Below, piece by piece: positions 45,770-62,766 of a DNA stretch of 64,000 nucleotides. This stretch comes from Dehalococcoidia bacterium (GTDB taxonomy: Bacteria > Chloroflexota > Dehalococcoidia > Lucifugimonadales > UBA3495). The stretch is taken from contig DAOUJY010000047.1 in NCBI GenBank assembly GCA_034421995.1, positions 39,125-103,124 of the forward strand. Reading direction: 5' to 3'. The first letter of the stretch is position 1. The number at the start of each line of letters is the position of its first letter. The notes under the pieces are model-generated. The model saw only the letters and a program-made list of their open reading frames with translations. It did not search any database and was not told the origin of the DNA. The position numbers and the translations under genes were made by a program.

Positions 45770-45796
45770 TGGATACCTGCCTGTCAATATTTGAGT

Positions 45797-45903
45797 CGTC
45801 GTTTCGGCATTTTAATCATCATTCTGGCATTTTAGCCGTCATTCTGGCATTTTAATCGTCATTCCGGCATTTTATCGTCATTCCGGCGAAAGCCGGAATC
45901 CAG
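45797..45903 (+). repeat. Stutter array (~20-nt units tcattc(t/c)ggcatttta...) ending in REP hairpin P1 (gtcattccggcgaaagccggaatcc)
   Basis: Four to five tandem units read directly in the rplM-rpsI spacer. Confidence 0.8.
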
Positions 45904-45959
45904 GAACCGGCCTGGCAAAATTTCAGGATGAAAAAATGCGCGCGATGTTTCCAGCGTGC

Positions 45960-46391
45960 TTACCCTTCGCTGCCGACCTGCGCCTCGTGGGGATGCTGGT
46001 CGCCAGCGTACACGCGCAGCCGCCGCAGCATCTGCCGGCCCTGCTTGTTGGACGGGAGCATCCCCTTGACCGCCAGGCGCACGACCCGCTCGGGCCGCTG
46101 CTCCATCATGTCCCGCATCAGGAAGGATTTGAGGTTGCCCACGTATCCGCTGTGTCGGTAGTACATCTTCTGCGTCAACTTTCGGCCCGTGATGCGAACC
46201 TTGTCGGCGTTGATGACCACCACGTGGCAGCCGGTGATGACGTGCGGCGTGTAGGTGGGCTGGTCCTTGCCCTGGAGGGCCACGGCGACCTGTCGGGCCA
46301 GCCGGCCCAAGCTGATGCCGGTGGCGTCGATGACGCGCCAGCGGTCCGGCACGTCGCCGGCTTTGGCGAAATAAGTGCTGGTTCGTTTCAT
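45960..46391 (-). CDS. rplM: 50S ribosomal protein L13
   Basis: DRWRVIDATGISLGRLA... ATG 46391 is 1 nt after the truA stop. Confidence 0.95.
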   Translation of the reverse strand: MKRTSTYFAKAGDVPDRWRVIDATGISLGRLARQVAVALQGKDQPTYTPHVITGCHVVVINADKVRITGRKLTQKMYYRHSGYVGNLKSFLMRDMMEQRPERVVRLAVKGMLPSNKQGRQMLRRLRVYAGDQHPHEAQVGSEG

Positions 46392-46392
46392 G

Positions 46393-47178
46393 TCAGTTGG
46401 CAACCTTTAGCAAGTGATCGTGTTCCGGGTAGTGTACCGACTGCAAGCACAGTCCTTTGGCCGGAAGTGTGGGAATCTGGTGTTGTAGTTGGGTGCGTCC
46501 GGCCAGGGTTTCCGACATGGCGTGAACGGGAAGTCTGCCTTTGCCTATTTCCACCAGTACCCCGTTGGCTCGCCTGATTTGATGACGCAGGAACCCGTTG
46601 GCAGCGCAGTCGATGATGATGACATCCTCATTTTCCGAGCTGCGTTCCACGTTCCAGTCGAACACCTGTCGCACCGCGCTTTGATCGTCCGGGTGTCCGG
46701 TGGCGATTGCCCGGAAATCCCTGATGCCCAGAAGGCTCGCGGCGGCCTGTCGCATCGCGGCAAGGTCCAGGGGGACCCTTTCCTGATGGTGCGTGCGGCG
46801 CAACAGCGGAGACGGAACCGGCCGGTTGAGGATACTGTATCGATAACGGCGTTTCCTCGCGCTGCGACGGGCATTGAAACCGGGTGGCATATCGCTGGCA
46901 ACCATAACGCGGATCGCGTCAGGCAAGTAGTGGTTCATCGCGGCGATGATCACGTCCGTCCGGTGTACGCTGCAAGTGACCAAGTCCACCACTTGCCCCA
47001 GGGCGTGCGCCCCCGAGTCGGTGCGGCTGGCCCCTCTGATCCTGACGGTCTCGCCGGTGAGTTTGGCGAAGGCTTGTTCCAGCTCGCCCTGTATGGTGGC
47101 TGCGCCGGCTTGCCACTGGAAGCCGGCGTACTCGGTGCCTTCGTACGCCACCACCAGGGCGATGCGACGTCCCTTCAT
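46393..47178 (-). CDS. truA: tRNA pseudouridine(38-40) synthase
   Basis: RIALVVAYEGTEYAGFQWQ and catalytic RTDSGAHA. Start is uncertain: 47178 or 47202. The track start at 47280 runs into a REP. Confidence 0.88.
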   Translation of the reverse strand: MKGRRIALVVAYEGTEYAGFQWQAGAATIQGELEQAFAKLTGETVRIRGASRTDSGAHALGQVVDLVTCSVHRTDVIIAAMNHYLPDAIRVMVASDMPPGFNARRSARKRRYRYSILNRPVPSPLLRRTHHQERVPLDLAAMRQAAASLLGIRDFRAIATGHPDDQSAVRQVFDWNVERSSENEDVIIIDCAANGFLRHQIRRANGVLVEIGKGRLPVHAMSETLAGRTQLQHQIPTLPAKGLCLQSVHYPEHDHLLKVAN

Positions 47179-47256
47179 TTCGGCAGTGCGCTGGGATGTC
47201 ATGCGGTAATTCGGGTGATGGCAATTCCTCTCTGGGTTGGGATGAACACTCATCTC

Positions 47257-47308
47257 GTCATTCCGGCGAAAGAACGGCACCCCGTACTTGATACGGAGCC
47301 GGAATCCA
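47257..47308 (+). repeat. REP P1 copy with a ~25-nt nested insertion in the loop
   Basis: gtcattccggcgaaag[aacggcaccccgtacttgatacgga]gccggaatccag. Confidence 0.7.
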
Positions 47309-47318
47309 GAACGGCTAT

Positions 47319-47672
47319 TTAAACCAGTTCAATAACGGCCATGTATGCGCCGTCGCCCTGCCGCGGACCCAACTTGACGATGCGGGTGTATCCGCCGGGG
47401 CGTTCCGCGTAGCGGGGGCCGAGTTCGTCAAAGATCTTGGCGACCACCGCCTTGTTGGGCAACTGGCTCAGGGCAGTGCGGCGGTTGTGGAGCGTACCCT
47501 TCTTGCCGTGGGTGATGAGCTTCTCGACCATCACGCGGGTCTCCTTGGCCTTGGCCAGGGTGGTGGTGATGCGCTCATGTCTGATCAGATCCGCCGTCAG
47601 GCCACGGAGGAGAGCTTTGCGCTGGTCCTTATACCGGCTGAGTTTGCGGCCGGCGACGCGGTGGGAAGGCAT
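47319..47672 (-). CDS. rplQ: 50S ribosomal protein L17
   Basis: L17 signature [15 protein letters not shown]...TTLAKAKE. Confidence 0.95.
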
Positions 47673-47674
47673 TG

Positions 47675-48757
47675 CTAGTCTCCGTCTTCATCGTAATCGA
47701 GGTCGTAATCATCGTCCGGTTCGGGGTCGAATACCAAGTTGCCGCCGGACTGGCTGAGATAGTCATCCCCGAGATCCCCTTCGGCCGGGCGCGATGCGGC
47801 GACGCCCAGCTCGGCCAGCTTGCCCTGGAGTTCCTCCAGCGATTTCTGGCCGAAATTCCGGATATTCAAAAGGTCGTCAGCGCTCAAGTCCAGGACCTGT
47901 CCGACCCGGTCCAGCTTGGCGCGCTTCAGGCAGTTGAGCGTGCGGGAAGAGAGGTCCAGACGCTCGATGGGCATGAGGTACACTTCCGATCCCACGGTAA
48001 GATTGGTCGTGTCCAGGGGAGCATCGGTGGGACGGCTCAACTGGTTGAACATGAAGAAGTGCTCCACCAGCTTGTCCGAGGCCTCCTGGATGGCCGCCAG
48101 GGGGCTGACCGCTCCATCGGTCCACACCTGTAGGATCAGGCGTTCCCAGTCGGTCTGCGCCCCTACCATCATGGGCTGTACCGCATATTCAACCTTGCGA
48201 ACCGGGTTGTAGATGGCGTCCACTGGCAGCACGCCCACTGGCAAGCCGCTCATGGTGTCGTTCTGCTCGGCTCGCTGGTATCCTTTGCCCGCCTCGACGT
48301 TGAATTCGATTGACAGGCTTACGTCCGGGTTGTCCAGCGTGGCCAGGTGCAGCTCCGGGTTGACGATCTGGTAGTCGCTGGCGGTGGAAATATCGCCGGC
48401 GCAGACGCGCCCTTCGCCGCTCACGTCTAGGCGCATCTTGCCGGTGCGCTTGGTCAACGCGTGGATGCGGATACGCTTGATGCTCAGGAGGAGGTCCATA
48501 ACCTCTTCCTTGACGCCGGGGATCACGGTGTATTCGTGGGGAACCCCGTCGATTTTCACCCAGGTCACCGCTGTGCCCTGGATGGAGCTGAGCAGCAGTC
48601 GCCGCAGCGGGTTCCCCACCGTGGTGGCGAAACCTCGTTCCAACGGCTCCAGGGCCACGCGGGCGTAGGTATCGTTGTTTTCGATCACCCGGATGGTGGG
48701 TGGCGGTATTTCCGGTTCGGGTTCCCGCAAGGGCGGGAGTATCTGAGGATCTAACAT
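47675..48757 (-). CDS. rpoA: DNA-directed RNA polymerase subunit alpha
   Basis: NTD ([17 protein letters not shown]) and CTD ([14 protein letters not shown]). Acidic C-terminal tail. Confidence 0.96.
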
Positions 48758-48765
48758 TCCGCTGC

Positions 48766-49392
48766 TTACCTTGAGTAGTACTCGACGATCAGGCGGGAGT
48801 TGATAGTCTCGGGCAGTTCATTGTCGGCCGGCAGGGAAATCACGTGGCCGGCCATCTCGGTCAGGTCCAGGGTAATCCAGCTGGGCAGGGTCCGCTTGGG
48901 CAAGCCGTCGGTTCGGTCGGCGAAGAATTCCCGGCGCCTGGAGGTTTCGGTCCACGCGATGGTCTGCCCGGGCTTCACCAGGAAAGACGGGATATCCGTC
49001 TTGCGCCCGTTGACGGTGAAGTGGCCGTGTTGCACCATCTGGCGGGCCTGCTTGCGCGAGTCGGCAAACCCCAGCAGGTAGATGACGTTGTCCAGCCGCC
49101 GCTCCAGCGTGCGGAGCAGGTTGTTGCCGGAGATGCCCGGGGTGTTGAAGGCGTCGTTCATGTACTTGCGAAACTGGCCTTCCATGATGCCGTACATCTG
49201 GCGGGCCTTCTGCTTTTCCCGCAGGTGAACGCCGTAATCCGAGACGCGACGCCGGCGGTTGCCTGCGCCTCCCGGCGGGACGTGGCGGCGCTCAATGGCG
49301 CAGCGCGGCGAGAAGCAGCGGTCGCCCTTCAGGAAGAGTTTCTCCCCGGCGCGGCGGCACAGGCGGCAAGAAGGTCCGGTATATCTGCCCAT
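48766..49392 (-). CDS. rpsD: 30S ribosomal protein S4
   Basis: MGRYTGPSCRLCRRAGEKLFLKGDRC... Confidence 0.96.
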   Translation of the reverse strand: MGRYTGPSCRLCRRAGEKLFLKGDRCFSPRCAIERRHVPPGGAGNRRRRVSDYGVHLREKQKARQMYGIMEGQFRKYMNDAFNTPGISGNNLLRTLERRLDNVIYLLGFADSRKQARQMVQHGHFTVNGRKTDIPSFLVKPGQTIAWTETSRRREFFADRTDGLPKRTLPSWITLDLTEMAGHVISLPADNELPETINSRLIVEYYSR

Positions 49393-49430
49393 GTTTTTCT
49401 GTCCGTTGGTGGTGTGAAGGGTTACAAGTT

Positions 49431-49457
49431 GTCATTTCGAGCGTAGCGAGGAATCTC
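49431..49457 (+). repeat. REP hairpin family P5 (gtcatttcgagcgtagcgaggaatctc)
   Basis: Read directly in the rpsK-rpsD spacer. Confidence 0.65.
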
Positions 49458-49502
49458 GTCGCAGCAACGCGCTGTTTGCCAAACTGACGTCACTAACGGA
49501 AT

Positions 49503-49530
49503 GGGATTGCCGCGCTGCGCTCGCAATGAC
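49503..49530 (-). repeat. REP hairpin family P5, inverted copy (gggattgccgcgctgcgctcgcaatgac)
   Basis: Reverse complement closely matches the copy at 60370-60396. Confidence 0.7.
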
Positions 49531-49552
49531 ATTTTCGTACCGGGTCGGCTGG

Positions 49553-49936
49553 TTACACCCGCCGGCGTTTCGGTGGCCGCACGCCGTTGTGGGGGATGGG
49601 CGTCACGTCCCGGATGCTGTTGACGTTGAGACCGGCGCCCTGGAGCGCCCGGATGGCGGGTTCGCGTCCGGAGCCGGGACCCTTGATGTACACGTCGATG
49701 TTGCGCATACCCATGTCCACGCCCCGCCGGGCAACCTGTTCGGCGGCCCGTTGCGCGGCGAAGGCAGTGCCCTTGCGGGAGCCACGGAAGCCGGCGGTGC
49801 CGGAACTGCCCGAGGCCACCACGTTGCCGTCCGGGTCGGTCAGGCTGACCAGGGTGTTGTTGAAGGTCGAGTAGATGTAGGCGCGGCCCTGGGGTATGGA
49901 CCGGCGCTCACGGCGACGGGCACGTGGACGGGGCAT
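49553..49936 (-). CDS. rpsK: 30S ribosomal protein S11
   Basis: [12 protein letters not shown]...GFRGSRKGT...[13 protein letters not shown]. Confidence 0.96.
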
Positions 49937-49963
49937 TGAACTTCCTCTCTATAGGGTGGTTTC

Positions 49964-50068
49964 GTCAGAATCGGATTTACGGGATTATCGGATTTTCAGG
50001 ATGGTGTAATCGTTGCCGAAGCCTTGTGATCCTGTCAATCCTATAATCTTGAAAATCCTGATTCTGAC
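49964..50068. mobile_element. MITE-like inverted-repeat element, family M3
   Basis: gtcagaatcggattt...atcctgtcaatcctataatcttgaaaatcctgattctgac. Shares its right arm with 41066-41156. Confidence 0.6.
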
Positions 50069-50083
50069 AAACTCCAGCAGCGA

Positions 50084-50476
50084 TTACTTCTTCCCGCCGG
50101 TGCGGCGGCCGCGGCCGGCAACGGTGCGCCGGGCGCCCTTGCGGGAGCGGGCGTTGGTCCGGGTGCGCTGGCCGTGCACGGGCAGGTTGCGGCGGTGTCG
50201 CAGGCCGCGATAGCTGCCGATGTCGATCAGCCGGCGGATGTTCTCGTTGTTCTCGCGCCGCAGGTCCCCCTCGGTAAGGTAATCCTGGTCAACGATGACG
50301 CGGATGCGGTCAACTTCCGTCTCCGAAAGCTCGTTCATCCGCGGCGGCATATCCGTGTCCAGATTGGCCTTGCCGACGATTTCCAAGGCTTTGGCGGGAC
50401 CAATTCCGTAGATGCTGCGCAGGGCGATGTGTGCGCGCTTGCGGTCGGGTACGTCAACTCCGGCGATACGAACCAT
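50084..50476 (-). CDS. rpsM: 30S ribosomal protein S13
   Basis: MVRIAGVDVPDRKR...YRGLRHRRNLPVHGQRTRTNAR. Confidence 0.96.
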   Translation of the reverse strand: MVRIAGVDVPDRKRAHIALRSIYGIGPAKALEIVGKANLDTDMPPRMNELSETEVDRIRVIVDQDYLTEGDLRRENNENIRRLIDIGSYRGLRHRRNLPVHGQRTRTNARSRKGARRTVAGRGRRTGGKK

Positions 50477-50501
50477 GGTGATTGCTCCTGAAATTCTTTC
50501 T

Positions 50502-50742
50502 CGTCAGTCCAACTTCTACTCGTCAGTCCAACTTCTACTCGTCAGTCCAACTTCTACTCGTCAGTCCAACTTCTACTCGTCAGTCCAACTTCTACTCGTC
50601 AGTCCAACCTCTACCCGTCAGTCCACCTTTCTACTCGTCAGTCCAACCTCTACCCGTCAGTCCACCTTTCTACTCGTCAGTCCAACCTCTACCCGTCAGT
50701 CCACCTTTCTACTCGTCATTCCGGCGAAAGCCGGAATCCAGG
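50502..50742 (+). repeat. Eleven tandem 19-20-nt units (cgtcagtcc...) ending in REP hairpin P1
   Basis: 5x cgtcagtccaacttctact, then 3x [cgtcagtccaacctctacc + cgtcagtccacctttctact], then cgtcattccggcgaaagccggaatccagg. Confidence 0.9.
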
Positions 50743-50788
50743 GACCGCCAGGTGCCTGATTCCTCGACCGTAGTTTCACATTCCAGCG

Positions 50789-50816
50789 CTGGATTCCCGC
50801 GAAAGCGGGAATGACG
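50789..50816 (-). repeat. REP P1-like hairpin, inverted, stem variant (ctggattcccgcgaaagcgggaatgacg)
   Basis: Read directly. Compensated stem change (ccggc to cccgc). Confidence 0.7.
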
Positions 50817-50834
50817 GCGGAACAAGAACTCGGC

Positions 50835-50948
50835 CTAGCCTTGGCGCTGGGCGTGCTTGCTGTTGACGCAGATGATGCGCACCACGCCCTTGCGCCGGAT
50901 GACCCGGCAACGGTCACAGCGTGGTTTCACGGATGCTGACACTTTCAT
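50835..50948 (-). CDS. rpmJ: 50S ribosomal protein L36
   Basis: Not in the ORF track (37 aa). Hand translation: [37 protein letters not shown]. Confidence 0.9.
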
Positions 50949-50969
50949 CGGGTTTCTCCGTAGCCTTCG

Positions 50970-51188
50970 CTACTTGAAGCGATAGGTGATGCGGCCGCGA
51001 CTCAGGTCGTAGGGGGACAACTCCACCAGGACCCGGTCGCCGGGCAGCACTCGAATGAAGTGCATCCGGATCTTGCCCGAGATATGGGCCAGCACCTGGT
51101 GGTCGTTGGGCAGTTCCACCCGGAACATCCCGTTGGGGAGAGCTTCAGTTACCTGAGCCTCAACCTCTATCGCTTCTTTTTTAGCCAT
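50970..51188 (-). CDS. infA: Translation initiation factor IF-1
   Basis: 72 aa; ...[34 protein letters not shown]. Confidence 0.96.
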
Positions 51189-51248
51189 AAATCAGCCCGC
51201 TTTAGGCGTGCCATCCCCGGCGGCTGGCGCCGATGGGCACGAGCCTCG

Positions 51249-52058
51249 TCAGTCGTGTACGGAAAGTATTTTCGGCCCATCTTTGGTGATGGCCAGGGTA
51301 TGCTCAAAGTGGGCGGAAAGCGCGCGGTCAGCGGTCACCACCGTCCAGTCGTCGTCCAGGATTTCGGTGGCCTCGGTGCCCAGGTTCAGCATCGGTTCGA
51401 TGCAGATGCACATGCCGGGCCGGAGCAGAACACCCTTGCCCGGTTCGCCGTAGTTGGGAACCTGGGGGTCTTCGTGCAGGTGCCGGCCCACGCCGTGGCC
51501 GACAAACTGGCGCACCACGCCGTACCCCCGCGGGGCGGCGTACCCTTCCACCGCCGCGCCGATGTCCCCGACGCGGTTGCCCGGCTGGGCAGCGGCGATG
51601 CCGGCGTACAGGCTCGCCCTGGTGTCGTCCATCAACTGCTGGGCCTCTTCACTGATCTCACCCACCGCCACCGAGATGGCGGCGTCGCCGATGAAGCCGT
51701 CGATGATGGCGCCCACGTCCATCTTGATGATGTCGCCCTCTTTGAGGACACGCTTGCCGGGGATGCCGTGGACGATCTCCTCGTTCACCGAAGCACAGAT
51801 GGTCCCAGGGAAGCCCTGGTAGCCGAGGAAGGCGGGCACCGCGCCCATGCTGCGGATGTTCTTCTCCGCGATCCGGTTGAGCTCGCCGGTGGTTATGCCA
51901 GGCTCAACTGACTCCCGGAGCAGGGCAAGGGTAGCGCCGACGATGCCGCCGGCCCTTTCCATCGCCTCCATCTCACGACGGGACTTGATGGTTACCCCCC
52001 CAGTGTAGGCTGAGGGGGAGTTGGAGGCTGTTTTTCGCTTGGAACTGTTTCCCACCAT
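51249..52058 (-). CDS. map: Type I methionine aminopeptidase
   Basis: Metal-ligand blocks DIIKMDVGA..DGF.GD, HGVGR, CIEPM and EHT. Confidence 0.93.
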   Translation of the reverse strand: MVGNSSKRKTASNSPSAYTGGVTIKSRREMEAMERAGGIVGATLALLRESVEPGITTGELNRIAEKNIRSMGAVPAFLGYQGFPGTICASVNEEIVHGIPGKRVLKEGDIIKMDVGAIIDGFIGDAAISVAVGEISEEAQQLMDDTRASLYAGIAAAQPGNRVGDIGAAVEGYAAPRGYGVVRQFVGHGVGRHLHEDPQVPNYGEPGKGVLLRPGMCICIEPMLNLGTEATEILDDDWTVVTADRALSAHFEHTLAITKDGPKILSVHD

Positions 52059-52150
52059 TGCTATTGTACCTCACTTCCCTCCGGATTGCCACTTTGCTTT
52101 GACGCTTCACGTAACTGTTCAGGCTTGTGCTGCCGTCGCAACGCCAAATT

Positions 52151-52177
52151 CGTCATACCGGCGAAAGCCGGTATCCA
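52151..52177 (+). repeat. REP P1 variant (cgtcataccggcgaaagccggtatccag)
   Basis: Compensated stem variant, in the adk-map spacer. Confidence 0.7.
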
Positions 52178-52218
52178 GAAATCTTTGCCCTGTTCATGTT
52201 GACTGATGCGCGGCGTTT

Positions 52219-52246
52219 CTGGATTCCTGCTGGCGCAGGAATGACG
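52219..52246 (-). repeat. REP P1-like hairpin, inverted variant (ctggattcctgctggcgcaggaatgacg)
   Basis: Read directly in the adk-map spacer. Confidence 0.65.
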
Positions 52247-52286
52247 AGTTCCTGACTGCTGTTCCCGTCAAATCTGAACGGTTGCC

Positions 52287-52979
52287 TTATTCGTCGCCTG
52301 TCTCCAGTGTCTGCAACACCGAAGCGTTGACGGCTTCCACGGAGCCTTCCCCGGCGACGTCAGCCAACAGGCCCCGTTCCCGGTAGAAGTCCAGCACCGG
52401 CGCCGTCTCCTGGTGATACACCGTAAGACGGTTGGCCACCGCTTCCGGCGTGTCGTCGTCCCGCTGGTAGATGTCGCCTCCGTCGGAGCAGTACTCGCAT
52501 CGTTTCGGCGGCGCGCCGGTGGCGTCGTCGCGGGCGTAGGGCCGCTGGCAGGCCCGGCAGATGTAGCGGTTGCTGAGCCGGCGGATCAGCTCGTCGTCGG
52601 CCACCCGGATGTGAATTACCCGGTCGATGCCCTGGCCCCTTTCTCCCAACGCCGATTCCAGAGCCTGCGCCTGGTTGGTGTTGCGGGGGAAACCGTCCAG
52701 CATGAACCCTTCACCGCCGCCAATCTGACCGATCCGGTCAATCACCATGCCGATGGTCACTTCATCGGGAACCAGCGCGCCCCGGTTCATGTAACCCCGC
52801 GCCAGCTCTCCCAGCTCGGTGCCGTTGGACAGGTGGTGCCGGAACAGATCTCCCGAGGCGACGTGCTCAATGCCCAATCGCTCCTGGAGCAGTTGGGCCT
52901 GCGTGCCCTTGCCGGCTCCAGGCGGGCCGAAGAGCACCAGTTTGAGGCCGCCGGATTTTTGACCGGAAACCGTCGTCAT
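52287..52979 (-). CDS. adk: Adenylate kinase (Cys4 zinc lid)
   Basis: LVLFGPPGAGKGTQ. The lid has CRAC...CEYC. ATG 52979 overlaps the secY stop (ATGA). The 545-aa track ORF is an out-of-frame extension. Confidence 0.93.
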   Translation of the reverse strand: MTTVSGQKSGGLKLVLFGPPGAGKGTQAQLLQERLGIEHVASGDLFRHHLSNGTELGELARGYMNRGALVPDEVTIGMVIDRIGQIGGGEGFMLDGFPRNTNQAQALESALGERGQGIDRVIHIRVADDELIRRLSNRYICRACQRPYARDDATGAPPKRCEYCSDGGDIYQRDDDTPEAVANRLTVYHQETAPVLDFYRERGLLADVAGEGSVEAVNASVLQTLETGDE

Positions 52980-54307
52980 CTCAAGAATCCCTCGTAGTTG
53001 CGCATCATCAGTTGCGCTTCCAGCTGGCGCAGGGTGTCCAGACCCACGCCCACCATGATGAGCAGGCTGGTGCTGCTGAGGGCGATGGCCTCCACGTTGG
53101 TGACCAGTGACGCCAGGTACGGCACGATGGAGATGAACCCCAGGAACAGCGCCCCGCCCATGGTGAGGCGAATGATGACCCGGTTCAGATATTCCTGGGT
53201 GGGCCGCCCCGGTCGTATGCCCAGCACGAAACCGCCGTTGCGTTGCAGGTTTTCCGCAATGTTCTGCTGCTGGAACACCACCAGCGTGTAGAAGAAGGTG
53301 AACGCCACCACCAGGAAGAAGGCCAGCACCCAGTAGATGGGACCGCTGGGGCTGAGGGCTACCTGCATATTGCCCGCCAGGTTCCCGACGAAACCGCCCG
53401 TGGCGCTGAGGTACTGCGCCACCGTGCCGGGCAGGATCACGATGGAAAAGGCGAAGATCAGGGGGATCATCCCGGCGGAGTTGATGCGCAGCGGTATGTA
53501 GGTGGAGCCCGATTGCCGGTACATCTGCCCGCCGCGGAAGATGCTGCGCCCGTACTGCACTGGAATGCGCCGGTGGGCTTCGTTGAACACCACGATCAGC
53601 GCGATGATGAGCAGCCCGATCAGCGCGAAGAAGAACACCCCGATGATGTTGTCCCGGTCCAGGAAGCCGGTTGCCAGCAGGCCGGGGAAACCTACCACGA
53701 TACCGGCGAAGATGATCAGCGAGATGCCGTTGCCAATGCCCCGCTCGGTAATCAGTTCGCCCAGCCACACCAGGAACATGGTTCCGGCGGTCAGCGAGAA
53801 AATCATCGCCATGGTCGGCAGCAGCGCATCCCCGGTGAAGCCCACGTTGGTCAGCACGTTGGCCTGCTGCAACAGCACCAGTTGGGCGAAGGCTTGCGCG
53901 ATGGCGATGGGCACCGTACCCCAATGGGTGATGCGGTTCATCTTGATGCGCCCGGCTTCACCCTCCCGCGAAAGGGCCTGCAATTGAGGTATCACCGGCG
54001 TTAGCAGCTGCATGATGATGGACGCGGTAATGTAGGGAAACACCCCCAGGGCCACGATGCTCATGCGGCTCAGAGCGCCGCCGGAGAAGAGGTCCAGGAA
54101 GCCCAGCAACTGGTTGTTCTGGAACAGTTGCTCCAGGTTGGCCACATCCAGGCCGGGTATGGGTATGTGGGCCACCAGCCGGTAGAGGGCCAGCATGGCC
54201 AGGGTGAACAGGATCTTGGCCCGCAGGTCGGGCAGGCTGAACGCGTCGATGGCCGCCTGCAACAGGCGCGGCCAACGACCGCCTCCCTGTACCTCTGACT
54301 GGATCAT
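52976..54307 (-). CDS. secY: Preprotein translocase subunit SecY
   Basis: 443 aa, ten hydrophobic segments, at the canonical position between rplO and adk. Confidence 0.95.
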   Translation of the reverse strand: MIQSEVQGGGRWPRLLQAAIDAFSLPDLRAKILFTLAMLALYRLVAHIPIPGLDVANLEQLFQNNQLLGFLDLFSGGALSRMSIVALGVFPYITASIIMQLLTPVIPQLQALSREGEAGRIKMNRITHWGTVPIAIAQAFAQLVLLQQANVLTNVGFTGDALLPTMAMIFSLTAGTMFLVWLGELITERGIGNGISLIIFAGIVVGFPGLLATGFLDRDNIIGVFFFALIGLLIIALIVVFNEAHRRIPVQYGRSIFRGGQMYRQSGSTYIPLRINSAGMIPLIFAFSIVILPGTVAQYLSATGGFVGNLAGNMQVALSPSGPIYWVLAFFLVVAFTFFYTLVVFQQQNIAENLQRNGGFVLGIRPGRPTQEYLNRVIIRLTMGGALFLGFISIVPYLASLVTNVEAIALSSTSLLIMVGVGLDTLRQLEAQLMMRNYEGFLR

Positions 54308-55063: not shown

Positions 55064-55984
55064 TCAGGCCGACCCTTCGGCGGCGTCGGTCCCGATTTCG
55101 GCTGATGTGTCGGCTGGGGCCTCGGCCGGAGCGTCGGCCTCAGCGGTCACCTCGGCAGCGGCCACCGGCTCCGCTTCTACCGCCGCGCTGTCGGCCTCAA
55201 CAGCAGCCGGAGCGTCCTCCGCCGCAGGGGCAACTGGTTCCGCCACGGCTTCAGCGACGGGTGCGGGTTCCGGCGTGGCTTCAGGCGCAGCGGTTTCGGC
55301 CGGCGGTGTAGTCGTCACGGCGTCTGCTTCAGGTGCCGTTGCCGATGCTCCGTTTGCGCCCGGCGGAGTCAGGCCCAGGCGAGCGGCGCGTTCCGTTTCC
55401 GGATCACGGAGCTGGCCCAGGGCTTCCAACGTGGCCTGGACGATGTTGATGGGGTTGCGGGAACCCAGGGACTTTCCCACCACGTCCTGCACGCCGCCCA
55501 ATTCCAGCATGGCCCGCATTGCGCCGGCGGCAATGACGCCGGTGCCCAGCGGGGCCGGCTTGATGATGACGATGGACGCGCCCTTGCGCACCGAGATTTC
55601 GTGGGGGATGGTGCTCCCCTTGATGGGGATCTGGATGGTGCTGCGCCGGGCCACCGCGGTTCCCTTGCGAACCGCATCGGGGATCGCCAGCGCCTTCCCC
55701 ATGCCGGCGCCCACGCGCCCCTGCCCGTCGCCCACCACGACCAGGGCGTTGAAGCGCAACCGGCGGCCGCCCTTGACGACCTTGGCAATGCGACGGGTGT
55801 GGACCACCCGCTCGTTCATGCCGCCGCTGTCGTCTTCGCGTTGGCGCTGTTCCCGGTCGCGGCCTCGACCGCCGCGTCCACCGCGACGTTCACCGCCGCC
55901 TTCGCCGCCGCCCCGGTTGCCCGGGCCGCCGCCTCGATTACCTGGGCCGCCTCTTGGCCCTCTGCGGGATGCGGGAGATACCAT
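55064..55984 (-). CDS. rpsE: 30S ribosomal protein S5 with a Gly/Arg-rich N-terminal and an Ala/Glu/Pro/Thr-rich C-terminal extension
   Basis: The core RIAKVVKGGRRLRFNALVVVGDGQGRVG...GTGVIAGGAMRA is flanked by low-complexity tails. 306 aa in total. Confidence 0.93.
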   Translation of the reverse strand: MVSPASRRGPRGGPGNRGGGPGNRGGGEGGGERRGGRGGRGRDREQRQREDDSGGMNERVVHTRRIAKVVKGGRRLRFNALVVVGDGQGRVGAGMGKALAIPDAVRKGTAVARRSTIQIPIKGSTIPHEISVRKGASIVIIKPAPLGTGVIAAGAMRAMLELGGVQDVVGKSLGSRNPINIVQATLEALGQLRDPETERAARLGLTPPGANGASATAPEADAVTTTPPAETAAPEATPEPAPVAEAVAEPVAPAAEDAPAAVEADSAAVEAEPVAAAEVTAEADAPAEAPADTSAEIGTDAAEGSA

Positions 55985-56343
55985 CAGAAAACAAGCCCTC
56001 CTTCCCGGGCGGCGTCGGCCAGGGCCTTGACCCGACCGTGGAAACGGTAGCCGCCCCGGTCAAACACCACCGAGCTCACGCCGGCAGCGATGGCTCTTTC
56101 GGCCACCAGCTTGCCGACGGCTTCCGATGCCGCCGTTTTTGGCGTGGCATCGTCGCTGCCGATTTCGTGGCTGGAGGCATAGGCCAGGGTATGGCCGCGA
56201 GCGTCGTCGATCACCTGGGCATAGATACTCTTCAGGCTGCGAAAGACGCACAGGCGCGGCCTCTGGGCAGTACCTATGACCTTGTTGCGAACCCGGCGGT
56301 GCCGGACGACGCGCAATTTTCGGGAGTCTTTATCGCGTGGCAT
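55984..56343 (-). CDS. rplR: 50S ribosomal protein L18
   Basis: [20 protein letters not shown]...[24 protein letters not shown]. Confidence 0.95.
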
Positions 56344-56373
56344 TTTTCTCTTGCTCTCAAATTACCCTGATGT

Positions 56374-56401
56374 CGTCATTCCGGCGAAAGCCGGAATCCA
56401 G
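56374..56401 (+). repeat. REP hairpin P1
   Basis: cgtcattccggcgaaagccggaatccag in the rplR-rplF spacer. Confidence 0.8.
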
Positions 56402-56410
56402 CGTCCTGTT

Positions 56411-57025
56411 CTAAACGGCCCGCCGCGCCGCGGCTTTGCCGGGTTTGAGACGGAGCACCTCGCCCTGGTAGCGGATGCCCTTCTCTTTGTAACGATTCGG
56501 GGGGCGGACCTTGCGGACTTTGGCCGCCAACTCGCCCACTTTTTGCTTGTCCACGCCACTGATGTGGACCCGGTTGTTGCCCTCAACCTGCATGGTCAGC
56601 CCTTCTTGCGGGAACACGTCCACGGTATGGCTGTAACCTACGCTGAGGGTAATGCCCTCCCCATTTTGCTGGACACGATAACCCACGCCCATGAGCTCCA
56701 GGGTCCGGTTGTAACCTTCAGTGACCCCGATGATGGCGTTGGCAATCAGCGAGCGGGTCAGGCCGTGCAGGGAATGGTGGAACTTGCGCTCCGTCAGCCG
56801 CTCCACGACCACCTGGCCGTCTGCAACCGTCACGTTGACTTCGGGATGATACTTCTGCGTGACCTGTCCCCGCGGCCCCGTCACTATGACGCCGCCGTAG
56901 ATGACCTCCACCTGCACGCCGTCGGGGATCGGGATAGGCTGCCGACCGATGCGGGACAGTGGCTTCTCTGTGGGCGGAACTCGCTGGGCCACGCCCTCGC
57001 TTACCATGACTTCGTTACCAGACAT
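56411..57025 (-). CDS. rplF: 50S ribosomal protein L6 (with N-terminal extension)
   Basis: LSRIGRQPIPIPDGVQV... Start is ambiguous: 57025, 57007 or 57067. Confidence 0.9.
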   Translation of the reverse strand: MSGNEVMVSEGVAQRVPPTEKPLSRIGRQPIPIPDGVQVEVIYGGVIVTGPRGQVTQKYHPEVNVTVADGQVVVERLTERKFHHSLHGLTRSLIANAIIGVTEGYNRTLELMGVGYRVQQNGEGITLSVGYSHTVDVFPQEGLTMQVEGNNRVHISGVDKQKVGELAAKVRKVRPPNRYKEKGIRYQGEVLRLKPGKAAARRAV

Positions 57026-57413
57026 AACAGACCAACTCTCCTCCGATACCCTTGCGCCAGGCTTCATAGCCGGTCATCATCCCCTGGGATGTGGAAACGA
57101 TGGCGATGCCCAGGCCGCCGTACACCCGCGGGATTTCACCCTTGCCGACGTGTACGCGCAGGCCAGGCTTGCTGATGCGCCTCAGGCCGCGAATGGCGTT
57201 CTGATCGTCGTCGCGGTACTTCAAGTGCACCCGCATGGTGGGGAACTTCTGGTTCCGCGCCAGGTCCCAATCCCGGATGTAGCCCTGGTCCTTCAGAATG
57301 TCGGCGATGGCGGTTTTCAACTTGGACTGGGGCACCAGCACCGTCTGGTGCCGGGCCTGGATGGCGTTGCGAATGCGGGTCAGCATATCGGCAACCGGGT
57401 CGTTAACGGGCAT
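57015..57413 (-). CDS. rpsH: 30S ribosomal protein S8
   Basis: MPVNDPVADMLTRIRNA... Confidence 0.96.
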   Translation of the reverse strand: MPVNDPVADMLTRIRNAIQARHQTVLVPQSKLKTAIADILKDQGYIRDWDLARNQKFPTMRVHLKYRDDDQNAIRGLRRISKPGLRVHVGKGEIPRVYGGLGIAIVSTSQGMMTGYEAWRKGIGGELVCYVW

Positions 57414-57442
57414 TGCGGCGATGCTCCTTGTTACTTGGTGAT

Positions 57443-57532
57443 GTCATCCCAATAACTCCTGCCATTCCGGCCAATAACTCCGGTCATTCCGGCCAATAAC
57501 TCCCGTCATTCCGGCGAAAGCCGGAATCCAGG
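57443..57532 (+). repeat. Stutter array (~20-nt units gtcattccggccaataactcc) ending in REP hairpin P1
   Basis: Three degenerate tandem units plus a complete hairpin, in the rpsN-rpsH spacer. Confidence 0.8.
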
Positions 57533-57550
57533 AATTTCACCACTACCGTC

Positions 57551-57856
57551 CTACAAACTCGCCTTGCGGACGCCGGGCAGGAATCCCTCCAACGCCATCT
57601 CGCGGAAGGAAATGCGAGACAGTCCGAAGTGTCGGATGTAGCCACGGGGCCGTCCGGTGGCGCCGTCCCGGTTGCGGATGCGGTTGGGATTAGCGTCGTG
57701 GGGCAGCAGGGCCAGTTTTTGGCGAGCCTCAAAGCGCTGGCGCGGGGTACTCGTCATGTCCCGCGCCTCCGCCAGCAGGGCGGCGCGCTGGGCGGCGTAC
57801 TGGGTGACCGTGCGCTTGCGCCGCTCGTTTTTGGCGATGGAGGATTTCTTGGCCAA
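57551..57856 (-). CDS. rpsN: 30S ribosomal protein S14 (long, non-zinc form)
   Basis: 101 aa. MAKKSSIAKNERRK...RNRDGATGRPRGY. No CxxC pairs. Confidence 0.94.
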   Translation of the reverse strand: MAKKSSIAKNERRKRTVTQYAAQRAALLAEARDMTSTPRQRFEARQKLALLPHDANPNRIRNRDGATGRPRGYIRHFGLSRISFREMALEGFLPGVRKASL

Positions 57857-57870
57857 GATTCATTTCTCCT

Positions 57871-58533
57871 CTACTGCCGGATGAACGGCATATCGAAGTG
57901 CTCCAGCAATCGGGTCGCCTCGGCGTCGTTGCGGGCGTTGGTGGTGATAGTGACCTGGAGGCCGCGCAGCCGGTCGATGCTGTTGTAGTCAATCTCCGGG
58001 AACACGATCTGTTCCCGCAGGCCCAGCGAATAGTTGCCGCGCCCGTCGAACCCGTTGCGGGAAATCCCCCGAAAGTCGCGGATACGCGGCAGCGCCGTAT
58101 AGATCAAACGCTCCAGGAAGTAATACATCCGGTCGCCGCGCAGGGTCACGGCGGTTCCAATGGGGTTGCCCTGGCGCACCTTGAAACCGGCGATGGAGCG
58201 GCGGGCCCGGGTGATGACCGGCTTCTGACCCGATATGGTGGTCAGGTCCCGCACCGCGCTTTCCATCGCCCGTCCGTTGGTCAGGGCCTCGCCCAGGCCG
58301 ATGTTCAGGTTGACCTTGGTGACCCGGGGAACCTGCATCGGGCTGGAGTATTCGAACTCCTGCATCATTGCCGGGATGATTTCCTCGCGGAACTTGATCT
58401 TGAAGGCCGGCGGCGGCAACTCGTTGGGTTGGGCGCCGTTGCTCTCGGCTTCTTCCTGCCGTTGCCGCTGGCGGCGGCCTTCGCCCTGGTTGGCCCGTTC
58501 TTCGTTAGATCTTACCTGCTGGTCAGTAGCCAT
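57871..58533 (-). CDS. rplE: 50S ribosomal protein L5 (with a charged N-terminal extension)
   Basis: Core [23 protein letters not shown]...[16 protein letters not shown]. About 40 extra N-terminal residues. Confidence 0.93.
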
Positions 58534-58551
58534 GATGCTCACTCGCCCGCG

Positions 58552-58827
58552 CTACTCGTCCCGATTGCGGAACTGGCTGGCGGGTTCGGTGTAGTTGCTC
58601 TGGATGAGCTTGACGTTGGAGATGTGTATGGACGCTTCCTGCTGAACGCGTCCGCCCTGTCGGATACCGGGCCGGGGTTTGTAGTGCTTGGTGACGACGT
58701 TCACGCCCTCGACCACGACGCGATTCTTTTCGGGGATCATTCCCAGCACACGGCCGGTCCGGCCCTTGTCCTTGCCAGCGATGACGAGGACGTCGTCGCC
58801 CCGGCGGATCTTGGTCTTCGCCATCAC
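58552..58827 (-). CDS. rplX: 50S ribosomal protein L24
   Basis: [22 protein letters not shown] (KOW motif). Confidence 0.95.
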
Positions 58828-59192
58828 ACCACCTCCGGAGCCAGGGACACGATGCGCATGAAGCCCTTGTCCCGCAGTTCCCGCGCCACCGGGCCGAAAA
58901 TGCGGGTGCCCCGGGGCAGCTGGTTGTCGTTGATGAGCACCGCGGCGTTGTCGTCAAACTTGATGTAGGTGCCGTCGGGACGCAGCAGGGGCGCCGCCTG
59001 CCGGACCACCACCGCCTTGACCACCGTTCCCTTCCGCACCGGCGAATTGGGGATCGCCTCCCGCACCGTGCAGACCACGATGTCCCCCACCGACGCGTAC
59101 TTGCGTCGGCTGGAACCCGGTATGTTGATGAGACGGATGCGTCGGGCGCCGCTGTTGTCGGCCACGTGCAGCCTGGTGTAACTCTGAATCAT
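58824..59192 (-). CDS. rplN: 50S ribosomal protein L14
   Basis: [18 protein letters not shown]... Confidence 0.97.
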
Positions 59193-59585
59193 CTACGCAT
59201 CCTCGTCGTCATCGGTATCGTCAACGGCAACGGCAAAGTCATTCGCCAGTTCAGGGCTGATGTAGTCGGATTCCCCGGCGATGGGTTCGATCACCGCGTC
59301 GCCTTCCAGGTCAATGGCCCGCACCTCGGCAACTTCCCGCCGGGCCAGGACTTCCAGCAGCCGCCAGTGCTTGGTGCGGGAGATGGGCCGGGTTTCCTGG
59401 ATTCGCACGGTATCGCCAATCCGGCACAGCTGGTTCGGGTCATGGACGTAGAAACGGGTCACCCGGCGCATCTGCTTGCGATAGATGCGATGGCGCTGTT
59501 TCCACACCAATTCCACCACGGCGGTTTTGTCCATCCGGGTGCTCACCACGGCGCCCACCCGAACTTTGCGCATTGCTTTGGCCAT
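59193..59585 (-). CDS. rpsQ: 30S ribosomal protein S17 (with an acidic C-terminal extension)
   Basis: GAVVSTRMDKTAVVEL...YVHDPNQLCRIGDTVRIQETRPISRTKHW plus a ~45-aa tail. Confidence 0.94.
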   Translation of the reverse strand: MAKAMRKVRVGAVVSTRMDKTAVVELVWKQRHRIYRKQMRRVTRFYVHDPNQLCRIGDTVRIQETRPISRTKHWRLLEVLARREVAEVRAIDLEGDAVIEPIAGESDYISPELANDFAVAVDDTDDDEDA

Positions 59586-59618
59586 TGTCTGATTCCTAAA
59601 TCAAAAGTCCTCAAAGAA

Positions 59619-59680
59619 CCGCTCATGGTGAGCTTGTCGAACCACAGGGAGCCATCCTTCAACAGGCTCAGGACGAGCGG
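59619..59680. repeat. REP-like inverted-repeat element family P4 (ccgctcatggtgagc...gctcaggacgagcgg)
   Basis: Terminal inverted repeats read directly in the 120-nt rpmC-rpsQ spacer. Confidence 0.6.
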
Positions 59681-59705
59681 TAGGGTCAACTTTGCGATTT
59701 CCCGG

Positions 59706-59897
59706 CTACTCCAACTCCCGCTCCCGCAAGCAGGTCAGCATACGAGCGATGTCCTTGCGGGTCTTGCGGGGCTGGTTGGTGTCCGTGAGTTGGTTGGTGG
59801 CGTCCCGAAAGCGCAGGTTCATCAGCTCTTTGCGGGATTTCTCCAACTCTTCCAGGATCTGATCGTCGGTCAGCGCGCGGATTTCGTACATCTCCAT
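59706..59897 (-). CDS. rpmC: 50S ribosomal protein L29
   Basis: 63 aa; EIRALTDDQILEELEKSRKELMNLRF. Confidence 0.93.
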   Translation of the reverse strand: MEMYEIRALTDDQILEELEKSRKELMNLRFRDATNQLTDTNQPRKTRKDIARMLTCLRERELE

Positions 59898-59902
59898 GAC
59901 GG

Positions 59903-60346
59903 CTAGCCTCCGGCGGTGCCAGTGAGCAGGGAGTTGACCCGGTCCCGGTACACCACCTTGGTCGGAATGGGCAGCTTGTGGGCGGCCCGCTGGAGGGCCT
60001 CTTCAGCCTGGTGGATCGGCACTCCGCCCACCTCGAACATGATCCGGCCCGGCTTGACCACGGCCACCCAGTGGTCGTTGGCCGCCTTGCCGCCGCCCAT
60101 GCGGACTTCCGCCGGCTTCTTGGACACCGGCTTGTCGGGGAAAATGCGGATCCAGGTGCGCCCGCCCCGTTGCAGGTGGCGGGAGATGGCGATACGGGCC
60201 GACTCGATCTGCCGGGCCGTGATCCACTCCGGGCTCATCGCCTTCAGGCCAATCTCGCCGAACTCCACCGTGTTTCCGGTGGTGGCGTTTCCCCGGCGCT
60301 TGCCCCGACCCATCTTCCGGTATTTCGTCCTCTTGGGCTGCAGCAT
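59903..60346 (-). CDS. rplP: 50S ribosomal protein L16
   Basis: [19 protein letters not shown]... Confidence 0.97.
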
Positions 60347-60369
60347 GATGTCAGTCTCCGTTTCTCTCT

Positions 60370-60396
60370 GTCATTGCGAGCGCAGCGCGGCAATCT
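60370..60396 (+). repeat. REP hairpin family P5 (gtcattgcgagcgcagcgcggcaatctc)
   Basis: In the rpsC-rplP spacer. Matches the inverted copy at 49503-49530. Confidence 0.7.
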
Positions 60397-60415
60397 CGTT
60401 ACTGCGCGGCCCGGG

Positions 60416-61153
60416 TCAGATGTCCAATTCCGCCGCCGCCAGATCCGCCTCGGCGTCCTGGCTGGTGACGCGAAACTCGATGCTTTCCAGCTCGCCGTCC
60501 TCTTCCGCCGCCGACGGCATGATCTGGCCCTTGTAGATCCAGACCTTGATGCCGATGCGCCCCATGGCGGTGTGCGCCTCGGCCAGGGCGTAGTCAATGT
60601 CGGCGCGCAGGGTATGGAGGGGAACCTGCCCCATCATCAGTTTTTCAGTGCGGGCGATTTCGGCGCCGGAGATGCGTCCCTTGGTGATGATCTTGATGCC
60701 TTCCGCGCCGGCCTGCATGGTGCGCAGGGCCGCCTGGCGCATGGCGCGGCGATAGGCGACGCGGCGGCTGAGCTGGTCCGCGATGTTCCGCCCCACCAGG
60801 TACGGGTCCATTTCGGGCTGGTCGATCTCGATGATGTTGAGCCGGAGCAGACCGCTGTTCATGGTCTCCAGCCGAGAGCGCAGACCCTTTACCCGGTCGC
60901 CGTCCCGGCCGATGAGAATGCCGGGGCGGGCCGAATGGATGTTGACGATGGTTTCCTGGGCGGTGCGGTCGATCTCAATCTTGGCAATGCCGGCATCGGA
61001 GAAGGCGCGGTATTCATCGTGAATGGCCCGGCGCAGCCCAAGGTCCTGCTGCACGCCGTTCCGGTATTGCGACCCGCTGTTGGCGTACCAGTGGGTTTTC
61101 CAGTCCTTGATAATGCCCAGCCGGAAGCCGAAGGGGTGGGTTTTGTGTCCCAT
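60416..61153 (-). CDS. rpsC: 30S ribosomal protein S3
   Basis: MGHKTHPFGFRLGIIKDWKTHWYA... with KH domain. Confidence 0.97.
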   Translation of the reverse strand: MGHKTHPFGFRLGIIKDWKTHWYANSGSQYRNGVQQDLGLRRAIHDEYRAFSDAGIAKIEIDRTAQETIVNIHSARPGILIGRDGDRVKGLRSRLETMNSGLLRLNIIEIDQPEMDPYLVGRNIADQLSRRVAYRRAMRQAALRTMQAGAEGIKIITKGRISGAEIARTEKLMMGQVPLHTLRADIDYALAEAHTAMGRIGIKVWIYKGQIMPSAAEEDGELESIEFRVTSQDAEADLAAAELDI

Positions 61154-61157
61154 AGGA

Positions 61158-61502
61158 TTAGTCCTCCTCTACCTCGTCCACTTCGATGATGATGTGGCTG
61201 GAGCGGCGGGTAACCCGGCCAATCCGGCCCCTGGCGCGCGCCCGAAAACGTTTGAGCGGAGTCGCCTGGTCTGCGGAGATGCGCGTGATGCGCAGGTCGT
61301 TGCGGTTCATGAACTCGTTGTTTTCGGCGTTGGAGGCCGCCGACTGCACCACCTTGGCCACCGAGCGCGCCCAGGGCGACGTCATCAGGCTGAGGTGATC
61401 CAGGGCGTCGTTGACCATCATGCCGCGCACGGCGTCCATGATGGGCTTGAGCCGTTTGGGAGACGCCCCCACCCCTTTGGCCTTTGCTCTCACTGCTGGC
61501 AT
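61158..61502 (-). CDS. rplV: 50S ribosomal protein L22
   Basis: MPAVRAKAKGVGASPKRLKPIMDAVRG... ATG 61502 follows GAGGTGA. The track ORF start is rejected. Confidence 0.94.
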   Translation of the reverse strand: MPAVRAKAKGVGASPKRLKPIMDAVRGMMVNDALDHLSLMTSPWARSVAKVVQSAASNAENNEFMNRNDLRITRISADQATPLKRFRARARGRIGRVTRRSSHIIIEVDEVEED

Positions 61503-61506
61503 GGCG

Positions 61507-61791
61507 TCACCTCGACCGGCTGGAGCGTTCCGACCGGGCCACGTGGCCCCGGTAGGTGCGCGTCGGCGCAAACTCGCCCAGGCGATGGCCCACCATGTTC
61601 TCGGTGATGAACACCGGAACATGACGCCGGCCGTCGTGGACGCCGAAGTTCAGCCCGACCATTTCGGGCATGATCATCGAGTCCCTCGACCAGGTGCGAA
61701 TCACGGTGGCCTCGCCGGATTCGCGAACCCGGTTGACCTTCTTGAGCAGCTTGGGGTGGACGTAGGGTCCCTTCTTTACTGATCTTGACAT
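61507..61791 (-). CDS. rpsS: 30S ribosomal protein S19
   Basis: [19 protein letters not shown]... Confidence 0.96.
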
Positions 61792-61855
61792 GGTGACAAC
61801 GACTGCCTGCAAGTACCCCGGCGGGTACGTGTATGTATTGGATTAGCCAGCCAGC

Positions 61856-62692
61856 CTAACGCCGCGAGCGTCGTCCGCGGATGATGAAACGGCTGGAGGT
61901 CTTCTTCTTGTTGCGGGTCTTGTGGCCCAGGGTGGGTTTGCCCCAGGGCGACTTGGGGCCGGGCATCCCGATGGGGGAGCGTCCCTCGCCGCCGCCGTGG
62001 GGGTGATCCACCGGGTTCTTGGCGACGCCGCGCACGTGGGGACGGCGGCCCAGGTGCCGCTTGGCTCCGGCCTTGCCCAGGCTCTCGTTCTTGTGGTCGG
62101 GATTGGACAACTGGCCTACGCTGGCCCGGCAGTTCAGCAGGATGCGCCGCATCTCGCCGGAGGGCAGGCGGATCAGCACGTAATCGCCTTCCCGGGACAG
62201 CACTTGCGCTCCGGTGCCGGCGCCGCGCACCAGTTGGCCGCCCCGGCCGGGCGTCAGTTCCAGGTTGTGGACCACGGTTCCGGTGGGGATGTTGCGCAGC
62301 GGCAGCGTGTTGCCGGGGCTGATTTCCGCGCTGGGGCCGGATTCGACCCGGTCGCCCACCGACAGGTTCACCGGCGCGAGGATGTAGGACTTCTCGCCGT
62401 CGGCGTAGTGAATCAGCGCGATGCGCGTGGTGCGGTTGGGGTCGTACTCAATGGTCTTGACCGTGGCCGGCACACCGTCCTTCTTCCGTTTGAAGTCAAC
62501 GCGCCGGTACATCTTCCGCGAACCGCCGCCGCGATGATACGCGGTGATGCGGCCCTTGTTGTTCCGACCGCCGCGCTTCTGTAGGGGTTCCAGCAGCGAC
62601 TTCTCCGGCTTCTTGGTGGTGATCTCCTCAAAAGAGGGCCGCACCGCGTTCCGCGTCCCCGGGGTTATTGGTCGCAAGTTCTTCAGAGGCAT
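61856..62692 (-). CDS. rplB: 50S ribosomal protein L2
   Basis: ...[11 protein letters not shown]...GNTLPL.NIP.GT.VHN.EL.PGRGGQ...HPHGGGEG. Confidence 0.97.
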
Positions 62693-62739
62693 AATGTTGG
62701 TCTCGCTTGCTTCTTTTCGTCGTTCCAGCGTCTATTTTT

Positions 62740-62766
62740 CGTCATTCCGGCGAAAGCCGGAATCCA
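62740..62766 (+). repeat. REP hairpin P1
   Basis: cgtcattccggcgaaagccggaatcca in the rplW-rplB spacer. Confidence 0.8.

Follow-up and report, generated by a model that had tools for sequence, protein, structure and literature searches.

Hairpins in the ribosomal-protein gene cluster of a probable Chloroflexota associate of sponges and corals are most likely recently acquired SRM/CGTC-1 repeats

The spacers of the ribosomal-protein gene cluster in a 64-kb stretch of bacterial DNA (contig DAOUJY010000047.1, positions 39,125 to 103,124; the window) contain nine copies of a short hairpin. We interpret these hairpins, with a probability of about 0.72, as repetitive extragenic palindromes (REPs) of the CGTC-1 family, the dRS3/NTS type of Neisseria whose relatives are named Ssn-related motifs (SRM), which entered the ribosomal spacers recently and are dispensable there. 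An apparent regulatory feature of ribosomal-protein operons is hereby reassigned to a repeat family with an enzyme partner described only in 2025. The element is of a known kind, found in a new host and in an unusual place, and exact sequence identity brings probable Chloroflexota associates of sponges and corals into the range of the SRM family.

Pfam assignments confirmed the identity of the cluster genes (rpsI and rplM, via rpoA, secY and rplB, up to rplD); all of them lie on the minus strand. A search with the 28-nt core CGTCATTCCGGCGAAAGCCGGAATCCAG, allowing up to three mismatches, gave six plus-strand matches, beginning at 45876, 50714, 52151, 56374, 57504 and 62740, and 100 of 100 dinucleotide shuffles of the window gave none. 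The pattern ATTCC-N10-GGAAT added two inverted partners, at 50793 and 52223, and the sequence at 47256–47308 proved to be the same hairpin with 25 nt inserted within its loop. A structure-aware scan of all 64 kb (GTCAT followed by an 8–9-bp stem with a 3–6-nt loop) recovered the known copies and found no CGTC hairpin between 1 and 45 kb. These scans bear out an earlier sequence-only reading of the window, which had placed nine copies in spacers of the S10-spc-alpha cluster and none in the first 45 kb; the spacer lengths it gave, 358 nt for rpmJ-rpsM, 228 nt for adk-map, 172 nt for rplM-rpsI and 137 nt for rpsN-rpsH, are also correct. Its view of a single REP-like family concentrated in the ribosomal cluster agrees with the counts, with seven hairpin sites in the 18-kb ribosomal part and none in the first 45 kb (post-hoc p between about 1e-3 and 5e-6 under different null models).

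Each copy is placed between a stop codon and the following ribosome-binding site. Five stand singly, all on the plus strand: in the rplM-rpsI spacer (45876–45903, an exact match to the core with a DNA hairpin of –9 kcal/mol), the rplQ-truA spacer (47256–47308, the split hairpin), the rplF-rplR spacer (56374–56401), the rpsN-rpsH spacer (57504–57531) and the rplW-rplB spacer (62740–62767). The other four form two inverted pairs with their tags facing outward and with stems that differ within each pair. In the rpmJ-rpsM spacer the plus-strand copy at 50714–50741 is followed on the minus strand by a partner at 50789–50816, with stem ATTCCCGC and loop TTTC. In the adk-map spacer the plus-strand copy at 52151–52178, with stem ATACCGGC, faces a minus-strand partner at 52219–52246, with stem ATTCCTGC and loop GCCA. 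Both partners were found by the stem pattern, the structure scan and folding. The 47- and 40-nt segments between the hairpins of the two pairs are mutually unrelated, as are their flanks, and a conserved mobile unit extending beyond the hairpins was rejected.

The CGTC tag and the CC(A) tail are present in 9/9 copies, and the stem variants (CCGGC/GCCGG, CCCGC/GCGGG, CCTGC/GCAGG and ACCGG/CCGGT) are fully complementary. The compensatory changes that the sequence-only reading had taken as a sign of selection on the hairpin are thus real, but a DNA palindrome does not need selection on RNA to account for them. Likewise, the GAAA loop is correct for the DNA as quoted but not for the transcript: because the ribosomal genes sit on the minus strand, the mRNA bears the complement of the core, with a UUUC loop and AAUGACG after the hairpin. 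An intrinsic terminator was considered and rejected, since the terminator scan called no copy and no T run follows the hairpin. Rfam covers the hairpins with no family, its sole match in the window being a SAM riboswitch elsewhere. Folded whole, the rpmJ-rpsM spacer is no more stable than its shuffles (z = 0.31), and in the fold of the entire adk-map spacer the tags of the two hairpins pair with each other.

Four features define CGTC-1 REPs, a family to which Rickettsia RPE-6 and the dRS3 of Neisseria belong: the tag is CGTC, the 8-bp stem opens with AT, the loop has 4 nt and the tail reads CCA (Di Nocera, De Gregorio and Rocco, 2013, BMC Genomics 14:522, PMC3733652). The window hairpins show all four structural features, and inverted dimers as well in the form of the two tag-outward pairs; the stem types seen here are already catalogued for the family (PMC3733652). 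CGTC repeats were reported in 2013 to flank no transposase gene and to occur in five phyla, Chloroflexi not among them (PMC3733652). Inverted pairs, several stem types per genome and, so far as the window shows, the lack of an adjacent transposase are shared between the family and the window, whereas the window differs in having mostly single copies with arrays of half units rather than dimers (PMC3733652). NTS, the oriented form of dRS3 (CGTCATTCCCGCGMAVGCGGGAATCYRG), and the related SRM are targets of SsnA, a 94-aa single-domain GIY-YIG nuclease (Chenal et al., 2025, Nat Commun 16:2388, PMC11893778). SsnA binds the hairpin in single-stranded DNA only, cleaves the CGTC-sense strand upstream of the tag, at a distance of a few nucleotides, and is inactive on double-stranded DNA, on RNA and on the reverse strand (PMC11893778).

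The published SRM search pattern, HGTCWYN(0-2)YYVSBRHN(0-5)WNVSBRGN(0-2)RNCYNB (PMC11893778), matches the six copies that were found with the core (6/9), against 0.58 on average and at most 3 in shuffled sequence. The remaining three, namely the split copy and both inverted partners, miss the pattern in the loop only, and SsnA accepts altered or extended loops, the loop not being essential (PMC11893778). The window core is one compensated stem pair away from Neisseria NTS (CCGGC versus CCCGC), and the stem of the partner at 50789 is identical to that of NTS. NTS repeats and the window hairpins have in common the CGTC tag, the ATTCC...GGAAT stem, a loop of the GMAV type (GAAA) and a C directly after the palindrome, together with a clustered, non-random intergenic placement and a symbiont host. 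They differ in that the window copies cluster inside ribosomal-protein operons, not around surface-protein genes, and in that the host is probably a sponge-associated member of the Chloroflexota.

In two other genomes the repeat stands next to a gene for a small GIY-YIG protein. A Syntrophobacteraceae genome (L047, 4230–4554) encodes a 96-aa GIY-YIG open reading frame (ORF; PF01541, E = 4.5e-17) with the identical hairpin 10 nt upstream, on one side, and a Propionivibrio genome (L100, 6018–6447) has a 98-codon open frame for a GIY-YIG homologue (phmmer E = 1.6e-44) with the identical hairpin on both sides in direct orientation. SRMs have been proposed to spread as an insertion sequence (IS)-like SRM-ssn-SRM unit (PMC11893778). 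Among the 118 listed loci of other genomes that carry the repeat, the only other protein families that recur beside it are very large ones such as SDR and ABC ATPase, with luciferase-like and hydrolase families, and none is transposase-like.

The ribosomal clusters of relatives lack the hairpin. The sequence-only reading had proposed comparing the same spacers in related genomes, and the outcome speaks against a ribosomal role: no CGTC-1 hairpin was found in the spacers of 80 related clusters (SecY identity 48–92%), where matches to the SRM pattern occur at chance level (7 in 809 kb). In the closest of them, a metagenome record with 92% SecY identity (L119), the adk-map spacer is 8 nt long versus 228 nt in the window and the rplM-rpsI spacer 28 versus 172 nt. 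Next in SecY identity comes a group of metagenome contigs at 73–78%; among named loci, a Dehalococcoidia genome gives the best protein match (62%).

Filled and empty alleles of the same sites exist among strains that differ by only about 1–2% in the flanking genes. At adk-map, runs X2 (DNA) and X8 (RNA) represent a strain in which ACTA stands where the window has a 190-nt block with the hairpin pair (52096–52285, no strand assigned); its contigs join 52095 to 52286. This empty junction is seen in one 950-nt DNA contig from X2 and one 646-nt RNA contig from X8; all RNA runs consist of assembled contigs, which break at repeats for assembly reasons. The RNA contig crosses the junction, and hence adk and map are co-transcribed without the hairpin pair. 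At rplW-rplB, the empty allele, GA alone, is present in X2, X6 and X8, while X2 and X3 contain the filled allele at lower depth. The coral-sample strain (X2) also carries the copies at 47256, 50714/50789, 56374 and 57504, and the sharing of the 47256 copy follows from an X2 contig that spans the region without gaps. Because near-identical strains are polymorphic for them, the insertions are recent, of differing ages and dispensable. These natural filled and empty alleles lie in the most conserved operons of the cell, and they offer a ready comparison for effects on expression or recombination.

The repeat itself is widespread. More than 118 genomic stretches share the identical 25-mer, and going by record titles they represent roughly a dozen phyla or phylum-level groups, among them Chloroflexota, Alpha-, Beta-, Gamma- and Deltaproteobacteria, Thermodesulfobacteriota, Binatia, Bacteroidota, Verrucomicrobiia, Gemmatimonadales, Acidobacteriota, Nitrospinota, Elusimicrobiota, Spirochaetia and Bipolaricaulota. 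Inverted pairs are common in these genomes too. Identity over so wide a range points either to horizontal spread or to a recognition constraint that the hosts have in common. A phage vehicle was considered and dropped, as the 25-mer was found in only 28 viral contigs, with one or two copies per stretch. In the 118 listed loci, homologues of the cluster genes stand near the repeat at about chance level (6 matches in 4 loci).

The window is best represented in sponge and coral metagenomes, and its host is probably a sponge or coral associate of the Chloroflexota, class Dehalococcoidia. Between 187 and 833 contigs per metagenome or metatranscriptome run bear the core, and the loose ends and pieces that were sampled have unrelated flanks, so the motif is not specific to ribosomal operons. 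In X1, the run in which the window is best represented, 529 contigs matched a 150-nt stretch around the 56374 copy and only two of them were local, a count that includes other members of the community. Several of the core-bearing X1 contigs have the depth of the organism itself, and one continues into a second, GTAG-tagged repeat of the window.

Several observations weigh against recent, dispensable SRM insertions as the whole explanation. The local density of hairpins is above chance and specific to this lineage, and membership in the SRM family leaves it unexplained. The five single copies share one orientation, an outcome with odds of 1 in 16 that could reflect selection. The inverted partners fail the SRM pattern because their loops differ, and no gene for a GIY-YIG protein was found within the 64-kb window. 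Finally, neither of the two clean empty sites corresponds to the precise loss of a hairpin: the differing block at adk-map measures 190 nt, and no target-site duplication was seen at that insertion.

The sequence-only reading had suggested a role in mRNA processing, stability punctuation or translational decoupling, and the hairpins could in principle be selected RNA elements of the ribosomal polycistron that block 3'-5' exonucleases, mark sites of processing or uncouple the translation of neighbouring cistrons. REP/BIME sequences of E. coli are hairpins within operons that affect mRNA, as stabilisers. Those repeats and the window hairpins are both transcribed in operons downstream of stop codons, and the invariable position before a ribosome-binding site, the common direction of the single copies relative to transcription, the stability of the hairpins, their presence in RNA contigs and their significant local density all fit such a function. 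Unlike the E. coli elements, however, the window hairpins give no sign of an RNA effect and are dispensable between strains. They are missing from the same spacers in 80 relatives, their presence varies between near-identical strains, adk and map are co-transcribed without them, and hundreds of contigs carry the core elsewhere with unrelated flanks where sampled. Orientation relative to transcription follows no rule in same-direction spacers of other genomes (24 sense, 24 antisense), the loop in the mRNA is UUUC and not of the GNRA type, and the sole characterised partner does not bind RNA (PMC11893778). We regard selection as RNA elements as unlikely. Since the hairpins are a known and widespread repeat, entered recently and are missing in close relatives, they are probably not a ribosomal regulatory device.

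A DNA-level function is conceivable by analogy with Neisseria: the SRM cluster might be kept as a shield, with Ssn cutting incoming single strands that bear the motif and blocking replacement of the ribosomal supercluster by foreign DNA. In Neisseria, NTS copies cluster around particular genes, and in Neisseria meningitidis DNA that bears NTS transforms about 5-fold less well under the action of Ssn; symbionts are over-represented among genomes with more than 300 SRMs (all PMC11893778). The window organism is a sponge or coral associate, and the significant local density would suit a shield as well. Relatives nevertheless manage without the motifs, and the polymorphism of the copies fits drift equally well. 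The CGTC-sense strand of the window is the one rich in C and presumably serves as leading-strand template, but the corresponding bias relative to GC skew is weak and not significant (15/22 Chloroflexota loci, p = 0.13; 36/67 elsewhere). We consider a shield improbable. Very unlikely, in our view, is that the hairpins are classical REP/REPIN elements moved by a RAYT, a tyrosine transposase of the IS200/IS605 type. GTAG REPs and REPINs are also short extragenic palindromes that often form inverted pairs in same-direction spacers, and a GTAG-tagged family of the RAYT-linked type is present in the same window; however, the tag here is CGTC in all copies, CGTC repeats have been reported without a flanking transposase gene (PMC3733652), no transposase-like family recurs in the 118 listed repeat loci, and the adjacent gene that was found encodes a GIY-YIG nuclease, a partner fold other than HUH. 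Misjoining of repeats into the ribosomal cluster during assembly is least credible of all. Short-read contigs do break at every copy, but gene order is canonical over all junctions, contigs from independent runs pass from each flanking gene into the hairpin with 0–2 differences, and one X2 contig spans the entire pair (50716–50817).

On the reading as SRM/CGTC-1 repeats, it is as single-stranded DNA that the hairpins act. The Ssn enzymes characterised so far, of about 94 aa with a single GIY-YIG domain, bind the CGTC-sense hairpin and cleave the strand 5' of the tag, a few nucleotides away. The CGTC family, together with two sister repeat families, has spread recently into the spacers of the ribosomal-protein cluster; the copies sit after a stop codon and before the following ribosome-binding site, a place that tolerates insertion, and the cluster does not need them. 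The hairpins would presumably be carried along passively in the polycistronic mRNA. Arrays of left arms on the side of the Ssn cut could be by-products of break repair or of slippage at the hairpin.

Such arrays accompany four of the copies, on the tag side of the hairpin, as tandem half units made of the left arm and 7–11 nt of filler with a period of 19–22 nt; all four lie on the plus strand. About four half units of 20 nt (TCGTCATTCCGGC plus ATTTTAA) abut the 5' side of the rplM-rpsI hairpin (45796–45875; Tandem Repeats Finder (TRF) period 20, 4.7 copies). In the rpmJ-rpsM spacer about eleven units of 19–20 nt (CTCGTCAGTCCAACTTCTA) run into the hairpin (50500–50713; TRF periods 19 and 39, 11.6 copies), and in the rpsN-rpsH spacer there are about three of 22 nt (GTCATTCCGGC plus CAATAACTCCC; 57443–57503; TRF period 22, 3 copies). 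One degenerate half unit (TCGTCGTTCCAGC plus filler) precedes the rplW-rplB hairpin (62717–62739, by sequence). In the arrays at 45796 and 57443 the hairpin-proximal units equal its left arm and the distal units have decayed. An X3 contig (depth 46.8) omits 192 nt of the 50500 array, which may therefore be shorter in the X3 strain.

Half units also occur elsewhere. In the listed loci an extra copy of the left arm lies upstream of the hairpin in 9/28 Chloroflexota copies versus 7/108 in other groups, and clear arrays are present in three further loci (L055, L076 and L089). The last of these, a Dehalococcoidia genome, contains on its minus strand (about 900–1150 of the reverse complement) a block of two left-arm half units and a full hairpin, repeated three times. 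Arrays of left-arm half units on the cut side are a feature of the window that we did not find described for NTS/SsnA in the available portion of the article (PMC11893778).

A tentative proposal, which we hold to be doubtful, is that the half-unit arrays are scars of Ssn cutting and that SRMs are self-renewing fragile sites. Ssn would cleave a few nucleotides 5' of the tag, and out-of-register repair of a break at the hairpin-proximal unit could then add or remove units beside the hairpin. Such a process would account for the polarity of the arrays (proximal units like the arm, distal units decayed), for the possible difference in length between strains and for the 19–22-nt period, and each added left arm could pair with the lone right arm and form a new cut site. 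Recurring half-site arrays on the cleavage side may thereby record the action of the nuclease in vivo. If this were true, the ribosomal pile-up would mark the most exposed single-stranded DNA, or recombination that is policed.

Other repeats share the ribosomal spacers. A sister family with a GTC tag forms an inverted pair in the rpsK-rpsD spacer (GTCATTTCGAGCG... and ...CGCTCGCAATGAC; hairpins at 49431 and 49503, within 49431–49530, no strand assigned), which folds into one long hairpin (–26 kcal/mol, z = –3) and is dispersed, as the high summed contig depth over it shows. A single sister GTC-tagged hairpin lies on the plus strand of the rpsC-rplP spacer (60370–60396), at a depth peak with many loose contig ends. 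The rpsM-rpsK spacer contains a dispersed repeat, ATCCTGTCAATCCTATAATCTTGAAAATCCTGATTCTGACAA (50029–50070), at both sides of which many metagenome contigs end, and in the coral-sample strain this 146-nt spacer is replaced whole by 17 nt. A 62-nt long inverted repeat (CCGCTC...GAGCGG, 59619–59680) fills the rpmC-rpsQ spacer and shows a 7-nt internal deletion in one run.

The GTAG-tagged palindromes of the window, GTAGGGGCGAATAATCATTCGCCCCTAC, belong to the RAYT-type REP superfamily and number seven copies, all outside the ribosomal cluster (42–69, 10224–10251, 17589–17616, 25380–25407, 32055–32083, 32103–32130 and 39678–39705); within the window the CGTC and GTAG superfamilies do not overlap in territory. 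The SAM riboswitch (RF00162, 67 bits) occupies 33166–33308 on the plus strand, just upstream of an ORF at 33302–34492. A motif with GCGTC(T/C) stutters, CT(C/T)TGCGTC...CCGCGCCTTTGCGTT, occurs at 16308–16340 and 63740–63772, immediately upstream of two unrelated genes, and one of the two sites is in the rplC-rplD spacer. Just past rpsI, a 21-nt tandem repeat, TTCCAAGGTGTCAAACCTGTT, extends over 3.9 copies (45062–45143). The rpsE frame (55064–55984, minus strand) encodes 306 aa, with S5 domains at residues 57–198 only, and its ends hold tandem repeats of 12 and 21 nt (55110–55145 and 55868–55951), which suggests low-complexity extensions or a later start.

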